Positions 5,355 through 53,249 of a stretch of DNA of 64,000 nucleotides are shown in pieces. Under the pieces are notes generated by a model. That model was not told the DNA's origin. It did not search any database and saw only the letters and a list, made by a program, of their open reading frames with translations. Every line of letters begins with the position of its first letter. The stretch's first letter is position 1. Position numbers and translations under genes: made by a program. Source of the stretch: a bacterium (GTDB lineage: Bacteria; Patescibacteriota; Minisyncoccia; Moranbacterales; GWC2-37-73); assembly GCA_003251635.1 (NCBI GenBank), contig QKEW01000008.1, positions 33,489 through 97,488 of the forward strand, read 5' to 3'.

Positions 5355-5811
5355 TGCATGCGAAGAATAATGTCTAAATAAATGAAGAAGTTTAATGGTC
5401 CTGTGCCTTTTGATAAAGTCAGCTATACTCCTCTGACAGGCATAGAATTTGGTATTTAGCTTTTGAAGTAATTGTTTTGTCCCCCCAACAAATCCTTTCT
5501 GAAAAAGTTTTTGCTTACTAATAGGAGTGTTCCTTTCCGGTGGCTTTTGAATTTAGAGCACATTTTAAACCGTCGAATTCTATCCGACTCATCATTCAAA
5601 GCCCTAATTTTTAACTGCCTCCCATTATATTACTTGACCAAAGCTTGTCAATCACCCAAAAGTTCAAAAGTCTTTTTTTGACCTTATTTTAGCCAAAATA
5701 TTGTGGATAAGTTTTTTAAAATCAACTTTTTTCCTCGAATAATTTGAAGTAAAAAAACAAATCTCGGCAATTTATGTTATAATGGATTGTGCGACACAAA
5801 AAAACTATCCT

Positions 5812-6729
5812 ATGAATTTAAAAATTCTTTTGAATGATTTTTTGGAACACTTGGAGGTGGAGAAAAGTCGTTCACTCAAGACCCTGGAAAATTATCGCCA
5901 TTATTTGGAACGTTTTTTGGATTGGTCCGGCGCCCAAACACCCGCTGATATCACCTTTGAATCGGTGCGCAAGTTCCGCTTGGAACTCAATCGCTTTACC
6001 GACGAAAAAGGTCAGGCATTAAAAAAAGTTACCCAAAATTACCATTCTATCGCCCTCCGGAGTTTTCTGAAATACCTGGCTAAGCGCGATATCGAAACGC
6101 TTTCGGCTGAAAAAATTGAAATCGGCAAAAATTCCCCCCACGAAATCGAGTTTTTGAGCGAGGAAGAATTAATAAGACTAATTTCAGCCGCCAATGGCAG
6201 TGATTTGAAAAGCTTGAGAGATCGGGCCATTTTGGAACTGCTTTTTTCGACTGGACTTCGAGTTTCTGAGCTGGTCAACACCAATCGCGACCAGGTCAAT
6301 CTCAAATCCCAAGAATTCAGTGTTCGTGGCAAGGGCGATAAAATCCGCATCGTTTTCATTTCTGATGGCGCACGAGAAACTTTGGAAAAATATCTCAACA
6401 AAAGAACTGACATTGATGAGGCTCTTTTTATCAGACTTTGCAAAAATCAAAAAGAAAGTTCCGAAGACACTCAGCGACTAACCAGTCGCAGCATCCAACG
6501 AATTGTCAAAAACTATGCCGCCAAAGCCGGAATTGTGAAAGATGTCCATCCGCACACTTTGCGCCACAGTTTTGCCACCGATTTGCTTTCCAATGGGGCT
6601 GACATCCGTTCGGTTCAGGCCATGCTCGGTCACAGTTCCATCACTACTACCCAGATTTACACCCACGTGACCAATCGACAACTCAAAGATATCCATCGAA
6701 AATTTCACAGCAAGAAACCAAAAAAATAA
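5812..6729 (+). CDS. xerD: Tyrosine recombinase, XerC/XerD family
   Basis: TGLRVSEL, GKGDK, HPHTLRHSFAT, LGHSSITTTQIY; TGnTATAAT at 5775-5783. Confidence 0.85.
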   Translation: MNLKILLNDFLEHLEVEKSRSLKTLENYRHYLERFLDWSGAQTPADITFESVRKFRLELNRFTDEKGQALKKVTQNYHSIALRSFLKYLAKRDIETLSAEKIEIGKNSPHEIEFLSEEELIRLISAANGSDLKSLRDRAILELLFSTGLRVSELVNTNRDQVNLKSQEFSVRGKGDKIRIVFISDGARETLEKYLNKRTDIDEALFIRLCKNQKESSEDTQRLTSRSIQRIVKNYAAKAGIVKDVHPHTLRHSFATDLLSNGADIRSVQAMLGHSSITTTQIYTHVTNRQLKDIHRKFHSKKPKK

Positions 6730-6780
6730 TTTGTTTTCAAGTTTTAATGTTCCAGTGCTTTAATGTTTAAATGAAATTTT

Positions 6781-8943
6781 ATGACTAATATATTACAAGG
6801 TCTAAACCCCCAACAAAAGCTGGCTGCCAGCACAGTTGATGGACCAATTCTAATCATCGCCGGTGCCGGCTCCGGTAAAACCAAAACCTTAACTCATCGC
6901 GTGGCTTATTTGATTCAAGAAGCTAAAATTCCCCCGCGCAATATCTTGACCGTCACTTTTACCAACAAGGCTGCCCAAGAAATGAAAGAACGCATGAGTG
7001 CAATTTTGAAATCCACTGATCCCAGGCTTCTACCCAATATCGGAACTTTTCACTCCATTTGCGTACGAATTTTGCGCAGCGAAATCAAGGCTTTGAATTA
7101 CAAAACTTCTTTTCACATTCTCGACACTCAAGACCAGCAAGCTTTGGTCAAGAAAATCATGAAACAACTGGAAATTGACACCAATCAATTCAATCCCAAG
7201 GCTTTTCTCTCTGCCATCAGCAGCTCCAAAAATGAAATGATTGATGCCGAACTTTTTTGCCAACAAGCCAACGGTTATTATGAAGAAACCTTGGGCAAGG
7301 TTTTCTCCCATTACCAAGCCCGCCTGAAAGAAGATAACGCTTTGGATTTTGATGACATTTTGAATTTCACGGTTAAAATATTTGCTGAAAATCCAGCAAT
7401 TTTGGAAAAATATCAGAATTGGTTCCGCTATGTCATGGTTGATGAATATCAAGACACTAACCGTGCTCAATATCTGCTCATCAATATGCTTTGTCAAAAA
7501 CACCGCAATTTGTGCGTGGTTGGCGACGATTGGCAAAGCATCTATCGTTTTCGTGGGGCTGATATTCAAAACATCTTGAATTTTGAAAAAGACTACCCGG
7601 ATGCCAAAGTTATTCACTTGGAACAAAACTACCGCTCCACCCAAATTATTCTGGACGCCGCTCACAGCGTGATTGCCAAAAATACCAATCGCAAAGAAAA
7701 AAATCTTTGGACTGACAAAGAATCAGGACAATTGATCACTTTTTTTGAAGGAAGCGATGAACAACGAGAAGCCGAATTTGTGGCTGAGCAAATTTTGGAA
7801 ACTCTCCAAAAAAATCCCGGTTTTAAACATAACGACTTCGTGGTGCTTTACCGCACCAACGCTCAATCGCGCGTCTTGGAAGAAGTTTTTTTGCGCCGCT
7901 CTCTACCCTACCGCATCATTGGCGGCTTGAAATTTTATCAACGCAAAGAAATTAAGGACCTGATTGCCTATCTGAAACTGATCTATAATTTTTCCGATTC
8001 AATTTCCTTAGAAAGAGTTCTCAACGAACCTAAAAGGGGGTTGGGCGCCGCCACCTTGAAACATTGGCTGGAATTTTCCAATCAAACTAAAATCAACCCG
8101 ATCGAAGCTGCGCTGCAAATGACTTCAGACAACTGCAAACTTAACAATGGCAAGATTGATGCGATTCGAAAATTTTGTGAGTTTGTTCAAAGAATGAAAG
8201 AATTCAGTCAAAGAGCGCCTTTGACCGATTTGATCGAAAAGGTTTTCAAGGAAAGTGGCTACGAAAAGATGCTTTTGGCTGACGGAACCGAGGGTGAAGT
8301 TCGTTGGGAAAATGTGCGCGAATTGGTTTCAGTGGCCAGCAAATTTGCTGAAAAGGAATATTTGGAGGTTGAAGATAAGTTGGGCGCTTTTTTGGAAGAG
8401 GTGGCTCTGGCCAGCGACACTGATTCTATCGATCAAAAAATTGACAGCGTTCATCTCATGACTCTTCATAGCGCCAAAGGCTTGGAATTTCCCGTTGTTT
8501 TCATTGTCGGAATGGAAGAAGGAATTTTTCCCCATTCTCGAAGCTTGCTTTCCTACGAAGAAATGGAAGAAGAACGCCGCTTGATGTATGTGGGCTTGAC
8601 TCGGGCCAAAGAAAAAGCCTATTTGATTTTTGCCCGCCAACGGACTTTGTTTGGCGCCACTCAAGTCAATCCACCATCGCGATTTCTGGAGGATATTCCG
8701 GAAAAACTGAAAGATGAACACAAATTAAAACAACAGCCAAGTTTCAATCCGCAAATATCTGGGATTTCTTCATTTTCCAAAAACAAATCCTCGATTGAAT
8801 TTAAAGACGGGGATCGCGTTTGTCATGATCAATTTGGGAATGGTGTCGTCATTTCAGCCATTGATGATCTTTTAGTCATAGCCTTCAAGCAAGTTGGCAT
8901 CAAACGCATCTCCAGCCAATACGCCAAGCTGGAGAAAATATAA
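6781..8943 (+). CDS. pcrA: ATP-dependent DNA helicase PcrA/UvrD
   Basis: AGAGSGKT, VDEYQDTN, LMTLHSAKGLEF, EEERRLMYVGLTRA. Confidence 0.95.
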   Translation: MTNILQGLNPQQKLAASTVDGPILIIAGAGSGKTKTLTHRVAYLIQEAKIPPRNILTVTFTNKAAQEMKERMSAILKSTDPRLLPNIGTFHSICVRILRSEIKALNYKTSFHILDTQDQQALVKKIMKQLEIDTNQFNPKAFLSAISSSKNEMIDAELFCQQANGYYEETLGKVFSHYQARLKEDNALDFDDILNFTVKIFAENPAILEKYQNWFRYVMVDEYQDTNRAQYLLINMLCQKHRNLCVVGDDWQSIYRFRGADIQNILNFEKDYPDAKVIHLEQNYRSTQIILDAAHSVIAKNTNRKEKNLWTDKESGQLITFFEGSDEQREAEFVAEQILETLQKNPGFKHNDFVVLYRTNAQSRVLEEVFLRRSLPYRIIGGLKFYQRKEIKDLIAYLKLIYNFSDSISLERVLNEPKRGLGAATLKHWLEFSNQTKINPIEAALQMTSDNCKLNNGKIDAIRKFCEFVQRMKEFSQRAPLTDLIEKVFKESGYEKMLLADGTEGEVRWENVRELVSVASKFAEKEYLEVEDKLGAFLEEVALASDTDSIDQKIDSVHLMTLHSAKGLEFPVVFIVGMEEGIFPHSRSLLSYEEMEEERRLMYVGLTRAKEKAYLIFARQRTLFGATQVNPPSRFLEDIPEKLKDEHKLKQQPSFNPQISGISSFSKNKSSIEFKDGDRVCHDQFGNGVVISAIDDLLVIAFKQVGIKRISSQYAKLEKI

Positions 8944-9685: not shown

Positions 9686-10498
9686 TTAAGCTAAAACCTC
9701 CACCAACCCCTCCCAATCCTCCACCGAAAGTTCCTGGGCGCGGACGGTTTTGGCAAAACCCTGATTTTTCAAAATTTGCTCAATTTCTTTTTTATCTTTT
9801 TGCAAACCTCCAGCTAAATTATTAGCCAGAGTTTTTCTTTTAGCTGCAAATCCCATCTTCACAATCCGAAAAAATCCTTTGATCTCCTTGTTGGTTTTAA
9901 TGTTTTCTTGTTTTAATGTTTTTATGCTCAAAACCGCACTATCCACCCTGGGCACCGGATTGAAGGCCACTCGCGAAACATCAAACAGATATTGAGCCCG
10001 GGCATAGAATTGGACCGACACCGCCAAAAGGCTCATCTGACCCGGCTCAGCCACAATTCTTTGGCCGACTTCTTTTTGCACCATCAAAATCATTTCGCTC
10101 GGCGCCAACTCATTTTCCAAAAAGCGCCGAATGATTGGCGAAGTAATATAGTAGGGTAAATTAGCCACCACTTTGTAGGCGCCTCTACTAACTTCATTTT
10201 CTTTCAAAATTCGGTTGAGATCCAAATCCAAAACATCGCCATGGATTATTTGGACATTTTTTTGATTTTGAAATTTTTGCCTCAAATTTTCAATCAAACG
10301 ATCATCCAACTCAATCGCAATCAATTTCTGACACCTGGGCGCCAATTTTTCCGTCAAAGCTCCCTCGCCCGGACCAATTTCCAAAACGACTTCCTGTCCG
10401 CTCAAATTGGCCGCTTCAACAATTTTGTCCAAAATTTTCTCATCGTGTAAAAAATTCTGCCCCAATGATTTTTTCGGTTTGATGTTTAAATCACTCAT
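9686..10498 (-). CDS. rsmA: 16S rRNA adenine dimethyltransferase
   Basis: KKSLGQNFL, EIGPGEG, ANLPYYI, PVPRVDS. Confidence 0.95.
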   Translation of the reverse strand: MSDLNIKPKKSLGQNFLHDEKILDKIVEAANLSGQEVVLEIGPGEGALTEKLAPRCQKLIAIELDDRLIENLRQKFQNQKNVQIIHGDVLDLDLNRILKENEVSRGAYKVVANLPYYITSPIIRRFLENELAPSEMILMVQKEVGQRIVAEPGQMSLLAVSVQFYARAQYLFDVSRVAFNPVPRVDSAVLSIKTLKQENIKTNKEIKGFFRIVKMGFAAKRKTLANNLAGGLQKDKKEIEQILKNQGFAKTVRAQELSVEDWEGLVEVLA

Positions 10499-10554
10499 AT
10501 ATTCTCCTAAATGCGTAAATTATCTATCAACTAATTATATGCCGGGCTTTATCC

Positions 10555-11553
10555 CTAGTTTTTCACTTCCTCCACCTTCACATCAATAATACCAGCTCCG
10601 ATGGAAGCGATTTTGGCAAAAGCGGCTTTATTCAGATCTATGATTCGATTAGCCCCGAATGGACCCCGATCATTGATTCGCACTATGATGGATTTATCAT
10701 TGGCTTTGTTGGTAACCTTAGCATAGCTTCCCAAAGGAAGCCATGGGTTGGCAGCCAACATTTCACCGAAAGGATATCTGGCCATCAAATTCGGATAAGG
10801 CGTCTGGTCATACCAACTGGCCCAACCGGAATGATCTTCTTTGCCCAACTTAATATAGGTTCCTTGAGTCACGATTTCATCAATTGGCGACTCCAAAACC
10901 TGCTCATCAACTTTTTTTCGTGAAATTTCTTCTCCGTCATGATAAATAACTTTGTAAATCACTTCTTTTTTACCCTTTACCCCTGCTTGAGTTACTTTTT
11001 TCTCCCGCCAACCCATTTCATCATCTTCATTAACAATTGTTTTGAAATCGATCTTTTCGGTTTCTTTCTCTTGTCGAATTTCCACGTGAGTTATGACCAA
11101 TTCAATTTCATCTGAAACCAAAGTTTCTTTTTCCGGCTGGAGTAAATCGTCCGGACCAAAATTAAGCTCCTCAATTTCCTCTACCGCTTGCCCGGCGGTT
11201 TTTTTGAGAGTATAAAACTCTTTTTCTTCTCCGCCCTCTTGAACCACAATTTTTCGAGCTTTTTGCAAATAAATTCGACTACCTGAAAGAATTTTTTCGC
11301 TCAGATCCGGTTGGACTGAGTCGTTGTCAGTAACTTCCAAAGATTGCTCTTGCAAAAAATCATCCACCGTCCGAGCTTCGCTCTGATAGGAATAATCCAA
11401 GCCATCTAAGTTTAAAATAATATTCTTGGTTTTAGTTTGAACAAATCGATCTTCTTCATCGGCTTGAGAAAAATAACCCCAAGCTAAAAAAATAACGCCT
11501 AGAACCAACGTTATTTTCCATTTTTTTCGAATTCTTTTTATGCGTACAAACAT
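10555..11553 (-). CDS. DUF348/G5 + RlpA-like lytic transglycosylase domain protein
   Basis: G5-like segment (QAGVKG...EIVTQGT); RlpA motifs ASWY, INDRGPF, IIDL. Confidence 0.85.
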   Translation of the reverse strand: MFVRIKRIRKKWKITLVLGVIFLAWGYFSQADEEDRFVQTKTKNIILNLDGLDYSYQSEARTVDDFLQEQSLEVTDNDSVQPDLSEKILSGSRIYLQKARKIVVQEGGEEKEFYTLKKTAGQAVEEIEELNFGPDDLLQPEKETLVSDEIELVITHVEIRQEKETEKIDFKTIVNEDDEMGWREKKVTQAGVKGKKEVIYKVIYHDGEEISRKKVDEQVLESPIDEIVTQGTYIKLGKEDHSGWASWYDQTPYPNLMARYPFGEMLAANPWLPLGSYAKVTNKANDKSIIVRINDRGPFGANRIIDLNKAAFAKIASIGAGIIDVKVEEVKN

Positions 11554-36538: not shown

Positions 36539-37318
36539 CTAATTATTGAACTTTGCATTACTCCATGTCAATTCAAACAAGGCTTTCAAGATATTGGACA
36601 GGGCACTGCTTTCTATCAAAATTCCCATGCGATTCGGTTCTTTGAGCAAAGCCATGACAACTTTGTTTTCATAAACATTAATTTCTCCACCAAAAAGCTC
36701 GATTCCTTTAAGCTGCTGTTTTTTTATCCAACGATATTCAGTATATTTGAACGATCCTTGATAGTCTTCAAGCCAACTTCTGGCTATTGGAGTATCTAAA
36801 AGCAATATTCTTTCATGAATTTTATTTTTACTTCGCTCCCTATTGTAACTTCTTGCCCAAGTGCGAAAGTCAGGCACGTCCCAACCCTCCACATCCATAA
36901 TTGATAAAATTTCACTTCTTGATTTGAGGGTTTCTTCAAAAATATTTTTAACTCCTTCGATCCCCTCTTGATATTTAATTGTGGGCTTATCCGCAAATTT
37001 ATAAAGAGAAACAAGATCAGGAAGCTTTTGCTCGACTTTTTCCAATGTTCTCTGCCATTGATTCTTTTTATTTTTTATGTGTTGGATAAGCCTTTGAGGA
37101 TGTTCGGCGCTGAAAACTATCTTAGCTCCCTTGCCAGAAACCTGATCAACTAATCCATACCAGCCCAATTTTTCCAAAACATGATAACCCAATGTTCTTG
37201 TAATGCCCGCCTTTTTGGTAATTTCACTGACAGTTGAAGGACCAAGCTCAAGTAAGGCCAAATACACTTTGGCTTCCGTTTCTTCCAGGCCTAACTCTTG
37301 AATGGTTTTTTCATTCAT
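36539..37318 (-). CDS. TrmB-family transcriptional regulator
   Basis: LGLEETEAKVYLALLELG; PTIKYQEG; TTGACA-N17-TATTTT ends 6 nt before the ATG. Confidence 0.9.
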   Translation of the reverse strand: MNEKTIQELGLEETEAKVYLALLELGPSTVSEITKKAGITRTLGYHVLEKLGWYGLVDQVSGKGAKIVFSAEHPQRLIQHIKNKKNQWQRTLEKVEQKLPDLVSLYKFADKPTIKYQEGIEGVKNIFEETLKSRSEILSIMDVEGWDVPDFRTWARSYNRERSKNKIHERILLLDTPIARSWLEDYQGSFKYTEYRWIKKQQLKGIELFGGEINVYENKVVMALLKEPNRMGILIESSALSNILKALFELTWSNAKFNN

Positions 37319-37519
37319 GCCCACAAAATAACAAATTTCGAGCATTGTGTCAATAATATTTTACATTTTGAACAAATATTTATTATTTTACCTTATTTAA
37401 GATATTTTTTATACTTATTTTGTATTTTCATATTTACTTTATTTTCAATTTAATTAAACTTACTCGTTATGATGAATTATCGTAACCAGCAACTTAACAA
37501 CAAAACGAGGAGGTGTCAG

Positions 37520-38936: not shown

Positions 38937-38997
38937 AAAAACAGGCTTTAACCAAAGCCTGTTTTTAAGTGAGCGGGCTAGTTAATACGGTTAGAAC
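38937..38997. repeat. Module-boundary repeat, copy 1 (hairpin + CTAGTTAATACGGTTAGAAC)
   Basis: Related copies at 40355-40454 and 42644-42706. Confidence 0.8.
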
Positions 38998-40354: not shown

Positions 40355-40454
40355 AAAAACAGGCTTTAAACAAAGCCTGTTTTTTAGGTTCGCCACTTAG
40401 TTAATACAGCCTGCCCCGAAGCAAGCCTCACTCTGCTACTGGGCTTAGAACTGG
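40355..40454. repeat. Module-boundary repeat, copy 2, with 35-nt insertion at 40410-40444
   Basis: Same hairpin and TTAATACRG|TTAGAAC motif as copy 1. Confidence 0.8.
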
Positions 40455-40488
40455 GTTCATTAAAAAATCCTTTCTTAAGGTTTTTTAA

Positions 40489-41244
40489 TTATATATTTTT
40501 AATTTCTAACTCTTTAGAGCCTCTCCATGCCAATTCAAAAACAAGTTTCTGAAATTTTGCATATTCATATGATTCAATGAGCATTCCAAACATTTCAGTT
40601 CCATAGGTTGCCACTGCAACCTTATTGCCATATATGTTCACTTCTACATCAATAGGAAAATCTTCTTCGGAAAGTAAGCGTCCTTCGCGCAATTGCTCCT
40701 CATTCTTAACTATATACGGAATTATTTCCTGGACTGCTTTGTAAATCCCGCGAAATTTTATTCCTTTTTCAATTCTTCTTTTAACATAATCTTCTGTATA
40801 TTCCGGCAAATGTTGTGTTATTCCCTCTCCCACATACCCTATAATCTCATCACCTTTTTTAAGACTTTTCAAGCTGTCTTCATACATTTCCCTTATACCC
40901 TCTTTGCCTTCGAAGTATTGGATGAACGGTTTTGATTTGGGAGCGTTATACAAATTCTGTAAAAGAGGCATAGCCTTGTGAATTCTTTCAATTCGCTCTC
41001 TTTGCCTATCTATAAGAGAAAGCGGATCAGCCGGGGAATAATATGACGTCTTACCTTTGATGCTTTTGTGAACCAAGCCGTCTTTCATCAATGAATTGAT
41101 GACGTCATAAGCCGTGGGCCTCTTAATTCCCGCCTTTTTGGCAATCAGATAGGCTGTCGCCCCGCCCAACTCCAAACAAGCCAGATAGACTTCTGCTTTC
41201 TTACCGTCAATGCCTATTTCTTCCAAAATTTTCTCTATTTTCAT
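40489..41244 (-). CDS. TrmB-family transcriptional regulator
   Basis: VYLACLELGG..IKRPTAYD; close paralog of 52500-53249. Confidence 0.9.
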   Translation of the reverse strand: MKIEKILEEIGIDGKKAEVYLACLELGGATAYLIAKKAGIKRPTAYDVINSLMKDGLVHKSIKGKTSYYSPADPLSLIDRQRERIERIHKAMPLLQNLYNAPKSKPFIQYFEGKEGIREMYEDSLKSLKKGDEIIGYVGEGITQHLPEYTEDYVKRRIEKGIKFRGIYKAVQEIIPYIVKNEEQLREGRLLSEEDFPIDVEVNIYGNKVAVATYGTEMFGMLIESYEYAKFQKLVFELAWRGSKELEIKNI

Positions 41245-42530: not shown

Positions 42531-42643
42531 AAAAATCTCTTAAAATTTAAGCCGGAGCGTAAACGCCCCGGCTTTTTCTTATTATTTGCATCTTGTCTAA
42601 CTAAAAAATTCTTTACTTGAAACAAAAACTGCCGCTTGAGCTG

Positions 42644-42706
42644 CTTAGTTAATACGGCCTGCCCCGTAGTAATTTGTACTCAAATTTACTGCTGGGGTTA
42701 GAACTG
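42644..42706. repeat. Module-boundary repeat, copy 3, with 40-nt hairpin insertion at 42658-42697
   Basis: CTTAGTTAATACGG|insert|TTAGAACTG. Confidence 0.8.
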
Positions 42707-42731
42707 GATTTATGAAAAAAGAGCTTGTTGT

Positions 42732-43577
42732 TTAAGCATTATTATTAAAAATCACTGCATAACCTCCAACTTTCACCTTTTCGCTAATTGATACATACAT
42801 CTTTCCGCCCTTTCCCATGCAATAGCCTTGTTCGATGATAAAGTTATTTTTGTCTAAGATTTTGTGTCTTACTGCATAAGCCCCTAGTGCACCTCCAGCC
42901 ACACCAGTTATGGGATCCTCATTAATTCCAGCTGCTGGATTAAATTGTCTTGCATGAAAATCAGAATCTTCGTCTTTGGTTTCAAGCGTGAACGGATAAA
43001 AACCTTTCACATTATGTTCCTTGCAATACATTTTAATTCCTTCCAAATCTGGTTTTATATCAAATAACACTTCCATCGAATTAACAGCAATCATTAATTT
43101 TGGAGTTCCGGTTGATACCGTTTGAATAGGATAATTAGCTAGTTCTTTTTCAGATACACCAAGCAACTTCACTATTTCGTTTTTATTGTGGCTATCCTCC
43201 GAAAATTGTGGACTAGCTTGATCCATAATTATCATGCCATCTTCACTGATTTTAATAGGTAGTACTCCCGCCTTAGTTTCTATCATTATGCTTTTTTCGT
43301 TCAAGTTTCCTAAATTAATTTTATTCTCTTTCCACGAGGCATAGACTGCAGCAATTGTAGCATGCCCACATAAATCTACTTCTTGAGTCTGGCTAAAATA
43401 TCTAATTTTGAAATCAGCCCTATTTGATTTTAACACAAAGGCTGATTCTGAAAATCCTAAATCTCTGGCAATTTCAATCATTTGGTTATCTTGTAAATTA
43501 TCAGCTTCAAAAATAACACCCGCTGGGTTGCCTTGACTTTTATCCTTTGTAAATGCTTTGACTAAAATTATGTTCAT
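42732..43577 (-). CDS. PhzF-family epimerase/isomerase
   Basis: GNPAGV, GFSESAF, EVDLCGHAT, EDPITG, EQG. Confidence 0.9.
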   Translation of the reverse strand: MNIILVKAFTKDKSQGNPAGVIFEADNLQDNQMIEIARDLGFSESAFVLKSNRADFKIRYFSQTQEVDLCGHATIAAVYASWKENKINLGNLNEKSIMIETKAGVLPIKISEDGMIIMDQASPQFSEDSHNKNEIVKLLGVSEKELANYPIQTVSTGTPKLMIAVNSMEVLFDIKPDLEGIKMYCKEHNVKGFYPFTLETKDEDSDFHARQFNPAAGINEDPITGVAGGALGAYAVRHKILDKNNFIIEQGYCMGKGGKMYVSISEKVKVGGYAVIFNNNA

Positions 43578-44018
43578 AAGTTCTTTTTTTATTATTTTAA
43601 TTGATTATTTTGATTAAAACAAACCCGTATTGTAATACTGAATCTTGAGGAAAACTAGTAAGGCAATACAGCTCGAACCAGAAATAAAGCCTTACTCAAA
43701 CAATGCAAAATTTTATATAAAAACTTTTCCAACGAAAAAAAAGGCTTAGGTAAGCCTCTATTCGGTGATCATAATTAGTAATCAGAATTGAACCTAAAAA
43801 ATGCTTTGTTTGAAATAAAAATGACACTGTGAGCTGTTTTTACGCTCAAGCTCGAACTTTTTTTGAAAAGAATTTTTAATTTTCCGCTCGGGCGGGCAAA
43901 AAGGGAAAGGGTCTGGGAAAAGGAATTTTTGCCCGCCCTCGCTTTCCGAATCCGATTTTTCCGCCGCCGCCGAATTTCGTGCCAATTTCATTGGCGCGCC
44001 GATCTTATTTTATTAAAA

Positions 44019-44447
44019 CTAATCCAAAAAGTTAGTTCCGGTTTTAATTGCAAAAGATGTTAAGAATAAAAGACCGCCAAAAAAGCATACTTTTGAAAAA
44101 GTACCGCACCATGAAAAAATCAGCTGTTTTCTACTCATTTTTTTCTCTAATAAATTTTTTGGGTCAGGTTTACCAAGATACCGTATCGGATCAAGATGAA
44201 TATATTCCATATGAAATTCATTTCTAATTATAGAGCTTAGCAAAGTCAGTAAAAAATAAATCCAAGAGGTAATCAATATCCATTCATTTGAAATTATTTT
44301 TTCTTGTAAATCAACACTTTTTAAATATCCTAGATAAGTAATACTAAGAACCACAGCCCCACCACTCAAATAAGCAAGATTGTTATAGAAACCAATAAAG
44401 TTTTTCATGCTGTCTCTTAGCTCTTTTCTAATTTCGTGCTGATCCAT
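44019..44447 (-). CDS. Hypothetical membrane protein (element cargo)
   Basis: 3 hydrophobic segments. Confidence 0.7.
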   Translation of the reverse strand: MDQHEIRKELRDSMKNFIGFYNNLAYLSGGAVVLSITYLGYLKSVDLQEKIISNEWILITSWIYFLLTLLSSIIRNEFHMEYIHLDPIRYLGKPDPKNLLEKKMSRKQLIFSWCGTFSKVCFFGGLLFLTSFAIKTGTNFLD

Positions 44448-44502
44448 AGTTTTTTATTGATTATTTCTGATATTTTTTCCCCATCATCTCCATATATAAA
44501 AG

Positions 44503-45165
44503 TCACTCTTTAATAATCATCCATTTTTTCTTTTCATCGCCATACATCACAAAATATATCATCCGTTGTATAACACCAAAATAAATTGGAAATAGGATGA
44601 ACCAACTAAAAAATGACACTATCCAACCCACAATCGTAATTAACCTATGCGAAATATGATCATGTCTCACTTTAGGATAAATTAATCTCCACGCCATAGA
44701 AATAAACTCTTTAAATCCAGTTTTATTCATTGACTCTCTGTTTTTTGCTTTCCGTATTAAAATTATTAACCGCACTATATCAAAAAATATTCCAAAAAAA
44801 ACAAATGTAATGACTACGCCCCATATAGGGAAAAAATACAAAAATGGCACTCCCACAATAATCCACAAGATTGCAACTCCAAAAAATAAAGATATCAAAT
44901 TGCTATCAAATCTAAACTCATGGGCATCAAGTGCTGCAAGTTTTTTGATATTTTTTATTATCCAATAACCAATCAAACTCAATGACACTCCAGCAAAAAG
45001 AATCCAAATTAAAATATCTGTAAATTTTGAATCTCCTTTTAGAATAACAAAATAAAAAACAAGTGAGAGAATAGTAATTCCAACGCCTACTATAAACGCT
45101 GAATTTGCAATAAACTGCATGCGAGAATACATTTTTTGAATTCTTTCATTAAACATATGTTTCAT
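44503..45165 (-). CDS. Hypothetical membrane protein (element cargo)
   Basis: About 5 hydrophobic segments. Confidence 0.7.
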   Translation of the reverse strand: MKHMFNERIQKMYSRMQFIANSAFIVGVGITILSLVFYFVILKGDSKFTDILIWILFAGVSLSLIGYWIIKNIKKLAALDAHEFRFDSNLISLFFGVAILWIIVGVPFLYFFPIWGVVITFVFFGIFFDIVRLIILIRKAKNRESMNKTGFKEFISMAWRLIYPKVRHDHISHRLITIVGWIVSFFSWFILFPIYFGVIQRMIYFVMYGDEKKKWMIIKE

Positions 45166-45190
45166 TAAAAATTTTAATAAATACTAATTG

Positions 45191-46315
45191 CTATTCTTTT
45201 TTGCACTGTTTCTGGTAATATGGAATTGATTTTACAAAATTCAATGCTTTTTCATCTATAAGATCTCCCTCATTTCTTGCTATGACCAATAGAGTTTGAA
45301 ACAATTGCGCAACTTCCTGAGTTTTTGTCATTCTTGATTCTAAGGATTTTTCTTCCTCATCATTTAATACATGGTAAACAAATCTTCCCTCTGAAATAAA
45401 TGCGCTCGCTTCTGCTCTGTAACATCCATCTTCAGAATCAACATCTTCATTATTAGCATACTGAAAAACATGAGTTAATTCATGGCGCAATAAAACTGCA
45501 GTCAATAAATCATCTTTTATGCTGTATTTAGGGGAAACTTTTATCAAATACTCATCTAAATTATGAGAGGGAGAGAAAACAAAGACGCCCTCCGCCCCAT
45601 TAATTGCTTTTCCAGATTCCGAGTATTCTATCTTTAAGCAATTTTTGATATTTTCTAAATTATCAGTTATCCCACTGTCTCCGCGCTGTCGATATCTTTG
45701 TATAATTAAATTAAGAGCGCGATTAAATTCATCTGGCATTTCATATCCGCTGTCTCTAACACAATAAACAGGCATCTCGTTAAAAATAATTAACCACTCA
45801 TCATTAATTTTAATGAATTTTCTATATATTCTTTGGGGATACTCTTTTGAGGCAAGGTCAAAAATACTTGTTTCGTCAATATATCCTATATCATTTTTTA
45901 TGATTACTTTGTTTACTTCTGCTATTTTTCCTTTCTTTAAATCATCTAAAAATATCTTTGATCTTTCGTCCTCTGGATTTTGTTGCGCGTACTCAATTAG
46001 TCGTTGCAATACTGATTCCTGCGAATATAAGGCACCTCGTTTTTCAATATACCTTTCTCTGCTTATTTTATGCTTAGATTCTGGAGATAAATAAAGATCG
46101 TATATTTTTCCAAATTCGTTCTTACTTTCCAATTCAAATATTTCATTAAATCTTTTAGCAAGCTTATCTTCGTCACTAATATTTACAGCAGATAGAGATT
46201 GCTCATGTTTGTTTTTTAAAAAAGAAAGGATTTCTACTCCATAAATTTTGATTGTAATAGCCACAATTACAATCAATGCTACGCTCAAAAAATAATTAGC
46301 GCTTTTCTTATTCAT
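45191..46315 (-). CDS. Membrane-anchored protein with HExxH zincin motif
   Basis: N-terminal TM; LRHELTH...E..AF. Confidence 0.7.
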   Translation of the reverse strand: MNKKSANYFLSVALIVIVAITIKIYGVEILSFLKNKHEQSLSAVNISDEDKLAKRFNEIFELESKNEFGKIYDLYLSPESKHKISRERYIEKRGALYSQESVLQRLIEYAQQNPEDERSKIFLDDLKKGKIAEVNKVIIKNDIGYIDETSIFDLASKEYPQRIYRKFIKINDEWLIIFNEMPVYCVRDSGYEMPDEFNRALNLIIQRYRQRGDSGITDNLENIKNCLKIEYSESGKAINGAEGVFVFSPSHNLDEYLIKVSPKYSIKDDLLTAVLLRHELTHVFQYANNEDVDSEDGCYRAEASAFISEGRFVYHVLNDEEEKSLESRMTKTQEVAQLFQTLLVIARNEGDLIDEKALNFVKSIPYYQKQCKKE

Positions 46316-46327
46316 GGTTTTAAAAAA

Positions 46328-46525
46328 TTATTTAATTAATTCATCAACGCTAACCTCGAGCGCTTTAGAAATTTTCTTAAGCGTATCAAGTGTTGGATTC
46401 TGATTTTTTCCAGCTTCAATCTTGATAATTGTGTTATTGGCAACATCAGCCAATCTCGCCAATTTTTCTTGTGATAATCCCTTTGATTCCCGTAATTTTC
46501 GGAGTGTTTTTTGAATATTTGACAT
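46328..46525 (-). CDS. XRE-family HTH regulator
   Basis: LRKLRESKGLSQEKLA...IE.GK..NPTL.TL. Confidence 0.9.
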   Translation of the reverse strand: MSNIQKTLRKLRESKGLSQEKLARLADVANNTIIKIEAGKNQNPTLDTLKKISKALEVSVDELIK

Positions 46526-47083
46526 ACTTATATTGTAGTAGTAGAATTATAGTATTAGTGCTACTTCCTTTCAACTACTTTGATGCTACACCAAAAATCA
46601 AAAATAGTAAACACGAACGGGAGTTATTTTGTGTTGTGTGCGCACGGGTGGGAGGGGCAAACACAACCACCTTTTTCTTGGCGGCGCTTTTCGCAAAGCG
46701 AAAAACGAAATTCGGCGGCGGCGGAAAAATTGGATTCGGAAAGCGAGGGCGGGCAAAAATTCCTTTTCCCAGACCCTTTCCCTTTTTGCCCGCCCGAGCG
46801 GAAAATTAAAAATTCTTTTCAAAAAAAGTTCGAGCTTGAGCGTAAAAACAGCTCCAGACAGAAAATTGCGATTTCGAAAGCGCCAGCGCCCACTCTTTTT
46901 GCGGTTGAAAGCTGGCGTTTTTGTTTTGGAGAGTCCAGTTCATTTGAGCGAAGCTCAAAGTTGAATAAAATTCAACAGCCGATTTTTTGCCTTTTCGCCA
47001 AAGGCGAAAATTCCAAATTTGGAGAATAAAAGAAAGCGCCAATTTTTTGCCCAAAAGCGATTTCAATAATCAAAAAAAACAAT

Positions 47084-48559
47084 ATGAATCAAACCAAAAA
47101 GTTTTTTCTCTATGCCAGAAAATCAACGGATGAAGCGGAAAGGCAAGTTTTGTCCATTGAAGCGCAACTGACCGAAGTTCGGGAATTTGCGCAGAAGGAA
47201 GGAGTTTTCATTGCGCGGGAATTTGTGGAAACAAAGTCCGCCAAAAAGCCAGGGCGGGATGTTTTTGAAAAAATGATTTCTGGCGTTGAGAAAGGCGAAG
47301 CCATGGGAATTTTAGCGTGGCATCCTGATAGATTAGCAAGAAATGCGATTGACGCTGGAAAAATAATAAATTTATTGGATATAGGAAAATTGGAAACGCT
47401 AAAATTCCCGACTTTTTGGTTTGATAAAACTCCACAAGGACTTTTCATGCTCTCTATCGCTTTTGGGCAATCCAAATACTATATTGATAATCTTTCAGAG
47501 AATATCAAACGAGGATTGCGCCAGAAGCTCCGAAATGGCGTCTATCCTGGATTTGCTCCCATTGGATATACAAATGAGCTTCGCAATCATACAATCATCA
47601 AAGACCCCGAGAATTGGCAGCTTGTGGCCAAACTTTTTGAAGAATACGCGACTGGCAAATATACCTTGGAGCAAATCCAAAAATTGGCGCTTTCTTTGGG
47701 CTTGATGAGCCGACGATCAAAAAAGACTTTGTCACTTTCAAGAATCCAAAGAATGTTGAGTAATCCTTTCTATTACGGATTGTTCCAATTCAAAAATGAA
47801 ATTTACGAAGGTAATCACGAGCCAATAATTTCCAAGCAACTTTTTGAAAAAGTGCAACGGATAATGGCGGATCGCGGAAAACCAAGAAAAGAAAAACCAA
47901 ACTATGGCTTTGGATTTCTGGGAATTTTCAAATGCGGAGAATGCGGACGATCCATCACTGCTGAACAGCACATCAAGAAAAGCGGTTTGGTTTTTCGCCA
48001 TTACCGTTGCACCAAAAAGAATGTTGATTGCTCACAAAAATATGTGAGCGAAAAAGACTTGCATTTGCAAATCAATCAGATTTTTCAAAAAGTTGCTTTG
48101 CCTCCTGAATGGCTGTCACCGATTTTAGCTAAACTGGACGAGGAAGAAAAAGAGGTTTCCCAAAAATCCCGCTCTTTCGCCCAAAATATGGAAAAGGAAA
48201 TTTCGGAAATTGAAAACAAAGTTTCACGACTTTTGGATATGCAGTTGGAAAATGAAATAACCCTGGCAGAATACAAAGAGAAAAAAGAAAAACTTCTGAA
48301 TCAAAAAACAGATTTAAAGCAGAAACTTTCGGATTTTGGGCGAAAAGGAAATTATTGGCTCGAACCGATGAGAAATTTCATTTTGTCGGCTCATCAAGCC
48401 AATTCCTTAATACATTCTGAAAATTTGGAAGAGAAGCGAAGCTTCTTGCAAAAAATCGGCTCGAACTGGACTCTCCAAAACAAAAACGCCAGCTTTCAAC
48501 CGCAAAAAGAGTGGGCGCTGGCGCTTTCGAAATCGCAATTTTCTGTCTGGAGCGGGTAA
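47084..48559 (+). CDS. Large serine recombinase (resolvase + recombinase + Zn ribbon + coiled coil)
   Basis: YARKST, DRLARN, NPFYYG, HEPIIS, CGECG...YRC; stop codon lies inside tRNA-Gly. Confidence 0.95.
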   Translation: MNQTKKFFLYARKSTDEAERQVLSIEAQLTEVREFAQKEGVFIAREFVETKSAKKPGRDVFEKMISGVEKGEAMGILAWHPDRLARNAIDAGKIINLLDIGKLETLKFPTFWFDKTPQGLFMLSIAFGQSKYYIDNLSENIKRGLRQKLRNGVYPGFAPIGYTNELRNHTIIKDPENWQLVAKLFEEYATGKYTLEQIQKLALSLGLMSRRSKKTLSLSRIQRMLSNPFYYGLFQFKNEIYEGNHEPIISKQLFEKVQRIMADRGKPRKEKPNYGFGFLGIFKCGECGRSITAEQHIKKSGLVFRHYRCTKKNVDCSQKYVSEKDLHLQINQIFQKVALPPEWLSPILAKLDEEEKEVSQKSRSFAQNMEKEISEIENKVSRLLDMQLENEITLAEYKEKKEKLLNQKTDLKQKLSDFGRKGNYWLEPMRNFILSAHQANSLIHSENLEEKRSFLQKIGSNWTLQNKNASFQPQKEWALALSKSQFSVWSG

Positions 48560-48622
48560 GCAGAATCGAACTGCCGTTTCATCCTTGGCAAGGACGTGTA
48601 ATAGCCACTATACGATACCCGC
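48548..48622 (-). tRNA. tRNA-Gly(GCC)
   Basis: GCGGGTA...TACCCGC-T-CCA, loop TTGCCAA. Confidence 0.95.
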
Positions 48623-48647: not shown

Positions 48648-48742
48648 CCCGCCCCAGTCTTAAACCAAGGCTAACTATTTTATTTTTATCTGCAATAAAC
48701 TGTGGGACCAGCAGGATTCGAACCTACGACCAAGCGGTTATG

Positions 48743-49369
48743 CTTCTCACTGCCACTTTCGCAACTTCTTTCGAATTTGTGAGCTGGACTATCCCTTCAC
48801 CCGTAAAACGGGGTCTGCCATCTAGTCTCTACACCTTCTTTGTTTGTACCATAGAATATGGAACATGCAAAGCTTGGCTCGGGATTGTCATAGATATAAA
48901 TATCCTTAGATTTCCCCGAATTTGACAGAATTCACTTGAAAATTACTTTTCAAGCAGCCCTGCAAATATCATTCATGTTATGTTATAATTAAATTATGAA
49001 AAAAATCATAACTTGTACCATTTGCAAAAAGACATTGTCTGGAAAACAAACAAAATTTTGTTCTCCAAAATGCAGAAATAAATCCCTGCAATCCTATCCT
49101 AGCCAACAAATTCGTGGCCTGAAAAGAAAGCGTCTTCTAGTAAAGCTAATGGGTGGATGCTGTTCAATTTGTGGCTATAGTAAAAATTTTGCTGCACTAA
49201 CATTTCATCATTTGAACCCAAAAAAGAAATCTTTCCAATTAGATCTAAGATCCCTATCCAATAGAAAAATGTCTAGGATTGATTCGGAAATGAAAAAATG
49301 CGTCTTGGTTTGCCAAAATTGCCACACAGAATTACATAATCCACAACACAATTTAGAATGAACTTTTTG
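48743..49369 (-). ncRNA. Group I intron (IC3-like), 627 nt, inserted after U33
   Basis: P AATTCGGGGAA, Q AATCCCGAGCC, R GTAGAGACTA, S GATAGTCC; terminal G; IGS GGCTGCTT pairs exon AGGCGGCT with U.G. Confidence 0.9.
48996..49361 (+). CDS. HNH homing endonuclease, antisense within intron L1
   Basis: CSICGY...LTFHH...CVLVCQNCHTELH plus N-terminal CxxC..C...C; TGnTATAAT at 48981-48989. Confidence 0.85.
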   Translation: MKKIITCTICKKTLSGKQTKFCSPKCRNKSLQSYPSQQIRGLKRKRLLVKLMGGCCSICGYSKNFAALTFHHLNPKKKSFQLDLRSLSNRKMSRIDSEMKKCVLVCQNCHTELHNPQHNLE

Positions 49370-49418
49370 AGCCGCCTGCTCTACCACTGAGCTATGGTCC
49401 CAATTCTCTCCTTTTTTG

Positions 49419-52499: not shown

Positions 52500-53249
52500 T
52501 CAATTTAATTGTAACCCTTCTCCGCCTCTCCAAGCAAGCTCAAAAACAGCTTTTTGAGACTTGGCAATTTCTGCGGATTCAATAATCATCCCAAACATTT
52601 CTTGCCCATAACTGGCAATAGCGACTTTGTTTTTATAGATATTGGTTTCATTGGAAACTGGAAAATCTTTTTCATTCAAAATCCGGACAACTCTAAGTTG
52701 TTGTTGATTATTTTTCATATAATCCATTATTCCGGGAAGCGCCTTATAAATTCCTCTAAGAACAATGCCTTTCTCCACTCTTCTTTTGACATAATCATCC
52801 GCATAGTCCAAAAGATTATCAATTACCCCTTCGCCCACATAAGCCAAAATTTCATCTCCTTTTTTCAAACTCCTTAAACTGTCTTCATACATTTCTTGAA
52901 TTCCATCACGCCCCTCAAAATATCTAATAAAAGGTTTGACCTTGGGAGAATTGTATAGGTTTTGCAAAACTGGTAAAACATTTTCGATTTTTCGCACCTT
53001 TTCTCTGGTTTTATTTACCAAAATTTGCGGGTCAGTGGGAAAATAGTGCGTGACTGAACCCTTGATATTTTTATACACCAAACCCTCACGCATAAGGTGA
53101 TTAATAATATCGTAAGCCGTTGGACGCTTTATGCCAGACTTTTTGGCAATCAAATAACCCGTAGCCCCTCCCAATTCCAAGCAAGCTAAATATATTTCAG
53201 CTTTTTTGCCATCAACTCCAATTTGTTTCAAAACCTCATTTATTTGCAT
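52500..53249 (-). CDS. TrmB-family transcriptional regulator
   Basis: IYLACLELGG..IKRPTAYD; KPFIRYFEG. Confidence 0.9.
   Translation of the reverse strand: MQINEVLKQIGVDGKKAEIYLACLELGGATGYLIAKKSGIKRPTAYDIINHLMREGLVYKNIKGSVTHYFPTDPQILVNKTREKVRKIENVLPVLQNLYNSPKVKPFIRYFEGRDGIQEMYEDSLRSLKKGDEILAYVGEGVIDNLLDYADDYVKRRVEKGIVLRGIYKALPGIMDYMKNNQQQLRVVRILNEKDFPVSNETNIYKNKVAIASYGQEMFGMIIESAEIAKSQKAVFELAWRGGEGLQLN

Follow-up and report, generated by a model that had tools for sequence, protein, structure and literature searches.

An inverted internal attP and a self-complementary integrase gene in a serine-integrase element of Patescibacteria, probably with a folded single-stranded DNA stage

We analysed a 64,000-nucleotide stretch of Moranbacterales DNA (Patescibacteriota; GenBank contig QKEW01000008.1, positions 33,489 to 97,488; hereafter the window), which carries an integrative element at the 3′ end of a tRNA-Gly(GCC) gene. 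Apart from the attachment-site halves at its ends, the element holds an intact, inverted copy of attP, the site that its excised circle would carry, upstream of a large serine recombinase (integrase) gene that is itself self-complementary throughout. The same layout recurs in relatives, and we conclude that the design is real, widespread and apparently undescribed; the final step of its use is unproven. Nested helices, strand-biased loops of a DNA type and the lack of a G·T excess make a folded single-stranded DNA stage in the element's life cycle likely. With less assurance, we also think it probable that this is a self-folding single-strand element, its protein gene folding like DNA origami, which either rebuilds its circle, unexcised, from transforming DNA or is inserted by a serine recombinase acting on one strand.

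The inner attP and its conservation in a family of elements

Self-comparison of the window showed that 43831-43980 pairs inverted with 46705-46854 over 150 nt, with a single mismatch (43954, G opposite T when the + strand folds), and that 46851-46941 pairs inverted with 48463-48553 over 91 nt, with none. The inner arms overlap and so share a 4-nt core, and GAGC stands at both element ends. These repeats, the boundaries and the inner inverted attP had been described in the same terms by a first-pass annotation made from the sequence letters, and all were upheld. Neither repeat has a further copy elsewhere in the genome. Among the contigs of a sequencing run, the repeats formed separate unitigs at depths of 55.4 and 54.1, about double the 20-28.5 of the unique flanks, as expected if each is present in two real copies; this depth test draws on one run, possibly of the source sample itself, with no independent sample.

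To see how general the layout is, we retrieved loci with related integrases (80 genome, 80 metagenome and 5 viral). An inverted copy of the 3′ end of the integrase gene, upstream of that gene (the B pair), was present in 80 of the 84 loci with enough sequence on both sides, and the second (A) pair in 26 of the 29 of these with at least 9.5 kb upstream; the remaining loci were untestable, their contigs stopping near the repeats. Four loci entered both the genome and the metagenome set and so are counted twice, and related loci are not independent samples. Both pairs occur in 45 loci including the window, with 0.6-9.1 kb of cargo. Arms are ∼99% identical within an element vs 48-75% between elements of a clade (ungapped identities, of which the between-element values may be low), which indicates that the copies evolve together. 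Thus the inverted attP is conserved in homologues while its sequence varies, the outcome for which the first-pass annotation had proposed to test. L101, L141 and L167 are variants with a more distant upstream B copy, still inverted: their integrase loops contain genes or long sequence and few internal helices.

Insertion is at tRNA 3′ ends, the tRNAs serving ten amino acids in all, and at what reads by sequence as a tmRNA in L079; the hosts are mostly Patescibacteria. The window's host genome is 0.9 Mb, and the closest integrases (∼90% identical) come from Moranbacteria and Parcubacteria. Phage and plasmid collections yielded distant relatives, at no more than 28% identity among the matches listed, and the three that were checked had no inverted repeat of at least 30 nt. 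Between arm B and the intact tRNA, tRNA 3′ pieces, partly duplicated or scrambled, stand in L027 (after 1938), L124 (after 3169) and L182 (after 7543), possible scars of aberrant insertion.

Orientation is nearly fixed. The tRNA follows the integrase gene, as in the window, in 89 loci; in three (L009, L120 and L158) a tRNA instead abuts the inner B copy, on the upstream side of that gene. Likewise, the cargo lies on the strand opposite to the integrase in 41 of 45 elements, L048 being a clean cargo flip. In L006, L106, L042 and L169, arm B is joined to the A-type arm of another element, a junction that we read as tandem insertion. L120 also contains a decayed integrase between two inward-facing tRNA-Gln genes (9706-11531), the outcome expected of recombination between the inner attP and a second tRNA, with rearrangement of the chromosome.

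Besides the integrase, no gene is common to all 45 elements. We scanned 62 cargo proteins, the window's 3 and 59 larger ones chosen from relatives, and obtained PADLOC matches for 19, of which 10 were restriction-modification and some others generic domains. No relaxase or conjugation family was found in the window's five element proteins or in the relatives' 59, a search that did not extend to an origin of transfer; the earlier statement that the element has no replication or transfer genes was borne out. L056 carries two adjacent histidyl-tRNA-synthetase-like genes in one element (5537-8165). Hsp70-like genes, an AAA ATPase and unknown genes, a possible defence system, make up cargo in L012, L042 and L109.

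The annotated parts of the window's element are as follows.

43831-48553, no strand: whole integrative element, 4,723 bp, bounded at both ends by GAGC cores; homologue junctions follow the same logic
43831-43980, + strand: left end (attL), core plus arm A, 150 bp, bearing the TCGAAC motif; within arm A, 43835-43879 encode a 14-residue C-terminal segment of the integrase in the attP form only
43981-43995, no strand: small hairpin at the inner edge of arm A, opposite the 46688-46704 hairpin in the predicted fold
44019-44447, - strand: cargo open reading frame (ORF), 142 aa, without Pfam or PADLOC match
44503-45165, - strand: cargo ORF, 220 aa, hydrophobic, without Pfam or PADLOC match
45191-46315, - strand: cargo ORF, 374 aa, without Pfam or PADLOC match
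46328-46525, - strand: Xre-type helix-turn-helix regulator (HTH_3, Pfam), first gene of the cargo operon
46519-46574, no strand: putative divergent pair of sigma-70-like promoters, from consensus match (11/12 each), directed towards the integrase (+ strand, 46519-46547) and towards the regulator and cargo (- strand, 46574-46546)
46688-46704, no strand: small hairpin at the inner edge of the inner A copy
46705-46941, - strand: inner inverted attP, intact, 237 bp, the reverse complement of arm B, core and arm A
46943-47010, + strand: three leader mini-hairpins (46943-46959 with a GAA loop, 46960-46976 and 46992-47010), interleaved with a 14-bp segment complementary to 48448-48461
47011-47061, + strand: leader segments complementary to the integrase coding region (47011-47020 with 48421-48430, 47029-47047 with 47679-47697, 47047-47061 with 47456-47470)
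47084-48559, + strand: large serine recombinase, 491 aa in its integrated (truncated) form, with 11 exact inverted matches of 11-18 bp
48463-48553, + strand: right end (attR), arm B plus core, 91 bp; arm B is the 3′ part of the integrase gene, and attR provides the final two bases of the tRNA CCA
48548-48622, - strand: target tRNA-Gly(GCC), whose T-loop supplies the attB-type motif

Attachment motif, split integrase gene and gene-wide fold

Homologue junctions place the crossover at the last 3-4 shared bases of the tRNA 3′ end. The motif TCGAAC stands at position 18 in 71 of 77 A arms; in the tRNA arms it is at position 13 (76 of 77, a count anchored on the motif itself). The 5-nt offset between the left-end arm and the tRNA T-loop that had been pointed out from the window is therefore real and general; the A and tRNA arms show the 5-bp shift of large serine recombinase sites. 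Such a shift between attP and attB half-sites is a described feature of serine integrases (PMC3783163), and we infer that the recombinase binds TCGAAC. The arginine codon in the motif is CGA or CGG in 59 of 69 cases vs about one third elsewhere in the same genes, which suggests a constraint at the DNA level. At any one position, the motif occurs in at most 2 of 77 B arms and at most 2 of 27 host arms, so that these arms lack it and symmetry is peculiar to this window. We accordingly rejected a symmetric integrase-side motif as a family feature: the TTCGA symmetry of attP noted in the first-pass annotation is due to chance, the integrase-side motif being so placed at one locus of 77, that of the window.

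The integrase has Resolvase (PF00239), Recombinase (PF07508) and zinc ribbon (PF13408) domains and a coiled coil, the make-up of a large serine recombinase; S14, D82/R83/R86 and four cysteines are invariant in 16 sequences, and the best solved-structure match in a profile search is the A118 integrase (E 6e-12). Its ORF terminates within tRNA-Gly(GCC). In the loci examined the reading frame spans the core, so that the chromosomal form ends in variable sequence from the other strand of the tRNA, whereas in the attP form the A arm adds, in nearly all loci with sequence there, a conserved in-frame segment of ∼10-20 residues whose third codon positions are less conserved than the first and second. 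The conserved last helix of the integrase is thus encoded only in the attP form, and the chromosomal gene lacks it. Full-length integrase is then expected only from the circle, from a flipped isomer or, by chance, in a tandem array. L169 and L128 do encode full-length tails, L169 with a different A arm in a tandem array and L128 without an adjacent inner attP. Completeness only on the circle has likewise been suggested for the Dehalococcoides integrase DsiB (PMC3146451). A second large serine recombinase of the same genome (G000:C6:121010-122655; 35% identical), which reads into the 3′ end of tRNA-Trp, served as a control: it has no inner attP, no exact inverted match of at least 11 bp and no nested helices.

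The leader of the window's integrase gene is complementary to four places in the coding region, with small hairpins between, and the coding region also pairs with itself. Exact inverted matches of at least 11 bp number 11 in this gene, vs 0.3 expected from synonymous shuffles. Counts exceeded every synonymous shuffle in 69 of 77 genes of the genome set, the window included, and in 64 of 71 metagenome genes. Among 140 ORFs of that size class from the same genome (mean 0.65), the integrase alone reaches six or more, the other 139 never exceeding four. In the integrase loop, 12 of 14 helices are mutually nested, and the most widespread of the recurrent helices is found in 100 of 136 genes. The two inverted attachment-site copies can form a duplex site in the predicted fold, as in elements that exploit Xer recombinases.

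The leader hairpins point to DNA as the folding molecule. Triloops account for 170 of 201 hairpins from 104 distinct leaders, and on the integrase-sense strand GNA loops outnumber their complement TNC by 91 to 13, with three GNRA loops and no UNCG loop. The d(GCGAAGC) mini-hairpin is far more stable as DNA than its RNA counterparts and is found at single-strand priming sites (PMC13037366). The recurrent helices show no excess of G·T over A·C (415 vs 541). G·T pairs are common in RNA helices. In the long arms G·T and A·C are balanced (41 vs 39), so a bias between them, which we had tried as an indicator of which strand folds, was rejected. Orientation relative to replication, read from GC skew of the flanks, is unbiased (35 of 58), so exposure of the lagging strand is unsupported as the source of the single strand. 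The dumbbell proposed in the first-pass annotation stands as far as a folded single-stranded form is concerned, for which the nested helices and DNA-type loops are independent support; integration straight from it is less likely than was implied there, since a full double-strand exchange on it would be expected to give hairpin-capped chromosome ends. Two points were absent from that annotation: the chromosomal integrase lacks its conserved last helix, and the strand with the stable loops cannot template integrase mRNA.

Possible uses of the fold

Our preferred reading, held tentatively and at somewhat less than an even chance, is that the inner inverted attP is a built-in splint on which host enzymes close the circle, ordinary integration following. 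A piece of donor chromosome would enter as a single strand, most simply by natural transformation. The folded strand would likely be the integrase-sense one; short helices would compact the integrase gene and draw the long arms together, the inner copy pairing with both element ends so that the host flanks stick out as flaps at the 4-nt core. Flap trimming and ligation are activities that hosts possess, and host flap nucleases and ligase would seal the junction, giving a circle in which attP is intact and the integrase gene full-length. After synthesis of the second strand, possibly primed at the leader mini-hairpins, the promoter next to the Xre gene would drive full-length integrase from the circle, which would insert into a tRNA 3′ end by ordinary double-strand exchange. 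Recombination at the attP copy behind the integrase would truncate the gene and give the stable, common layout. Such an element would need no excision, directionality factor, relaxase or replicase. The splint is the simplest use of the fold because no integrase mRNA can be transcribed from the integrase-sense strand and the gene on it is truncated. It requires no new chemistry and accounts for an element without excision and transfer genes in a host that has ComEC and DprA. The host genome encodes these two and a Pol I-type 5′-3′ exonuclease domain, and natural competence has been reported in Saccharibacteria (PMC10187176).

Several points weigh against this reading or the fold beneath it. At least two Watson-Crick pair types occur in 106 of 452 pairs, but these covariation counts carry no correction for phylogeny and coding constraints contribute to them. 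Despite long repeats, exact internal helices are few in L067, L070, L071, L076, L079 and L018 (one each at 11 bp); these exceptions are a GC-rich group plus L018, and most have modestly raised counts at 9-10 bp. The cargo shows weak folding (7.8 vs 4.3 on average, 4 vs 2.8 in the window), DNA fold energies of the two leader strands are similar in five loci, and singly interrupted helices hold 18 G·T vs 9 A·C pairs, a non-significant difference (p = 0.12). That the conserved motif is confined to the A and tRNA arms is no less compatible with one-strand exchange. Each of ComEC, DprA and the exonuclease domain is present in 10-11 of 14 control genomes, so none discriminates between readings, and the tRNA flap could fold and block trimming. 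Furthermore, if a double-stranded circle offers two equivalent attPs, insertion in either orientation is expected, yet the orientations stand at 89 vs 3, so the splint model must add selection against the full-length isomer.

Moreover, the run contigs, metagenome and viral loci examined gave no sign of a single-stranded form, a free circle or an empty site. The circle junction that the first-pass annotation had suggested looking for did not appear in the run contigs, and 85 viral and metagenome loci (5 viral) showed no terminal repeat. The empty site that it had also suggested was found neither with the window's own left flank among 60 relatives, none of the same genus, nor as a joint in four sequencing runs; in seven relatives the tRNA-Gly end differs from arm B directly beside GAGC. 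One contig of run X3 joins the integrase end via B to A; we did not count it, since unitigs of 31 letters against a 91-bp repeat may have produced a false path.

The fold might instead be integrated directly, the integrase swapping only the integrase-sense strand with the tRNA and replication resolving the junction; in the donor, a counterpart reaction, again on one strand, could copy that strand out. The exact layout and its fixed orientation both follow from exchange of one strand and subsequent replication. By cleavage polarity, subunits on the A and tRNA arms, the two that carry the motif, would cut the integrase-sense strand, which is also that of the GNA loops. Tyrosine recombinases provide precedents in CTXphi (PMC3442271) and in SE elements (PMC9345347). 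Serine recombinases, however, rotate half of the tetramer after double-strand cleavage (PMC4817059, PMC3575834), our literature search brought up no natural one-strand case among the records listed, and the catalytic motifs of this integrase look ordinary. With the resident gene truncated and the integrase-sense strand no mRNA template, the enzyme would have to come from elsewhere. An arbitrary downstream arm also faces other integrases with targets at gene 3′ ends, DsiB at ssrA among them. We regard direct integration of the folded strand as the main rival, though an unlikely one. Double-strand exchange on the dumbbell would use normal chemistry; it should create hairpin-capped chromosome ends, unlike the observed layout, which would be reached only if the linear chromosome were replicated to a head-to-head dimer and excision-type recombination resolved this into empty and occupied chromosomes. 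The tRNA(+)-B′-integrase junctions of L009, L120 and L158 fit this route. It requires both reaction directions and survival of an intermediate of a kind called lethal in the CTXphi literature (PMC3442271), predicts both isomers equally, and is very improbable.

Other readings dispense with a single DNA strand. The inner attP might be a genetic switch in double-stranded DNA, host recombination at the B copies flipping the integrase gene, restoring its last helix and enabling excision. A flip would indeed restore the conserved tail, flipped-type junctions exist and the L048 cargo is flipped; the inversion function that had been raised as an alternative in the first-pass annotation thus occurs, but it looks rare (3 of 92 tRNA-anchored loci), the cargo orientation is nearly fixed, and the A pair, the gene-wide nested helices and the strand-biased loops are left unexplained, so we think a switch improbable. 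Folding of RNA seems slightly less probable still. Here an integrase transcript starting before the inner attP would pair its leader with the coding region and be silenced or destabilized, consistent with a promoter-like site directed through the inner attP into the gene, with helices adjoining the start codon and with most strong helices lying within the transcript. The triloops, however, are of the DNA type rather than GNRA or UNCG, G·T pairs are not in excess, and the A pair spans cargo transcribed in the opposite direction. Finally, all evidence comes from short-read assemblies of uncultured cells, in which many contigs break inside the repeats, and an assembly artefact was one of the findings that the first-pass annotation had named as fatal to its claims. 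An artefact or a functionless by-product is nevertheless scarcely credible: the unitig depth is doubled, the repeats recur in dozens of separate assemblies with differing sequences and targets, the copies differ by mismatches, and helices lie within unique sequence.

Neighbouring features and known systems

Just beyond the left end of the element lies a PhzF-family isomerase gene (42732-43577). Elsewhere in the window, at least two and probably more TrmB-type regulator paralogues on the minus strand each face a short plus-strand operon (36830-37320, 40489-41244 and 52500-53249), and a repeated block of terminator plus TAGTTAATAC stands at the junctions (38940-38995, 40358-40467 and 42601-42720), its copy near 38969 starting like the 3′ end of tRNA-Gly. 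The regulator/operon blocks are possibly a host-expanded cassette array or old insertions. Beyond the target tRNA, at 48697-48925 and 48996-49361, ∼630 bp with an HNH endonuclease ORF split a tRNA-like sequence and are likely a tRNA-gene intron; 48740-49370 is missing from contigs of other organisms.

Archaeal split integrases of the SSV1/pT26-2 type also have their gene broken by tRNA insertion; these are tyrosine recombinases, and their elements have no spare copy of the site. With the A118/LI large serine integrases (PMC3783163) the present element shares the domain order, the catalytic serine motif and the 5-bp shift between P- and B-type motifs. Unlike them, it has the motif in one arm per site, an attP inside the gene, a second, inverted attP, gene-wide self-complementarity and no evident directionality factor. 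The Dehalococcoides ssrA islands with DsiB (PMC3146451) likewise have a serine integrase that overlaps the attachment site with its 3′ end and is perhaps complete only on the circle, a stable-RNA target, tandem arrays and no transfer genes. They differ in a six-gene module, nothing of which occurs here beyond a frequent small regulator; the window's element lacks the ssrA target and the dsiA/parB/mom module, its target being tRNA-Gly, and the word 'inverted' does not appear in the main text of PMC3146451.

In CTXphi (PMC3442271), two inverted attachment-site copies fold a single strand into a duplex site, one copy being broken and one intact after insertion, as here. CTXphi uses host tyrosine recombinases, a dif target and phage replication and virion genes, whereas the present element has its own serine recombinase, kilobase loops and no phage genes; instead of XerC/XerD sites and dif it has a tRNA 3′-end target. 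SE elements (PMC9345347) are also small and integrative; their circle derives from one specific strand and leaves no empty donor site; in the present family the leader loops are strand-biased, and no circle was seen in the loci and run contigs examined. They have tyrosine recombinases, two among four conserved core genes, a set that is lacking here, and their abstract mentions no inverted attP. The element thus falls outside the Xer-exploiting, SE and relaxase-bearing classes, although its mode may resemble the first two. Among the records listed, a search of the open-access literature returned no description of the inner attP layout or of the gene fold.

If the proposed life cycle is true, it would offer a testable route by which islands without transfer, replication or excision genes spread among competent bacteria, a question left open for the Dehalococcoides islands (PMC3146451), and would reveal protein-coding DNA selected to fold as a single strand over 1.5 kb. 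Should the integrase accept folded single-stranded donors, or require no more than a tRNA half-site, it would be a useful tool for genome insertion. For the Patescibacteria, such elements are a possible route for the movement of restriction-modification and other defence genes.

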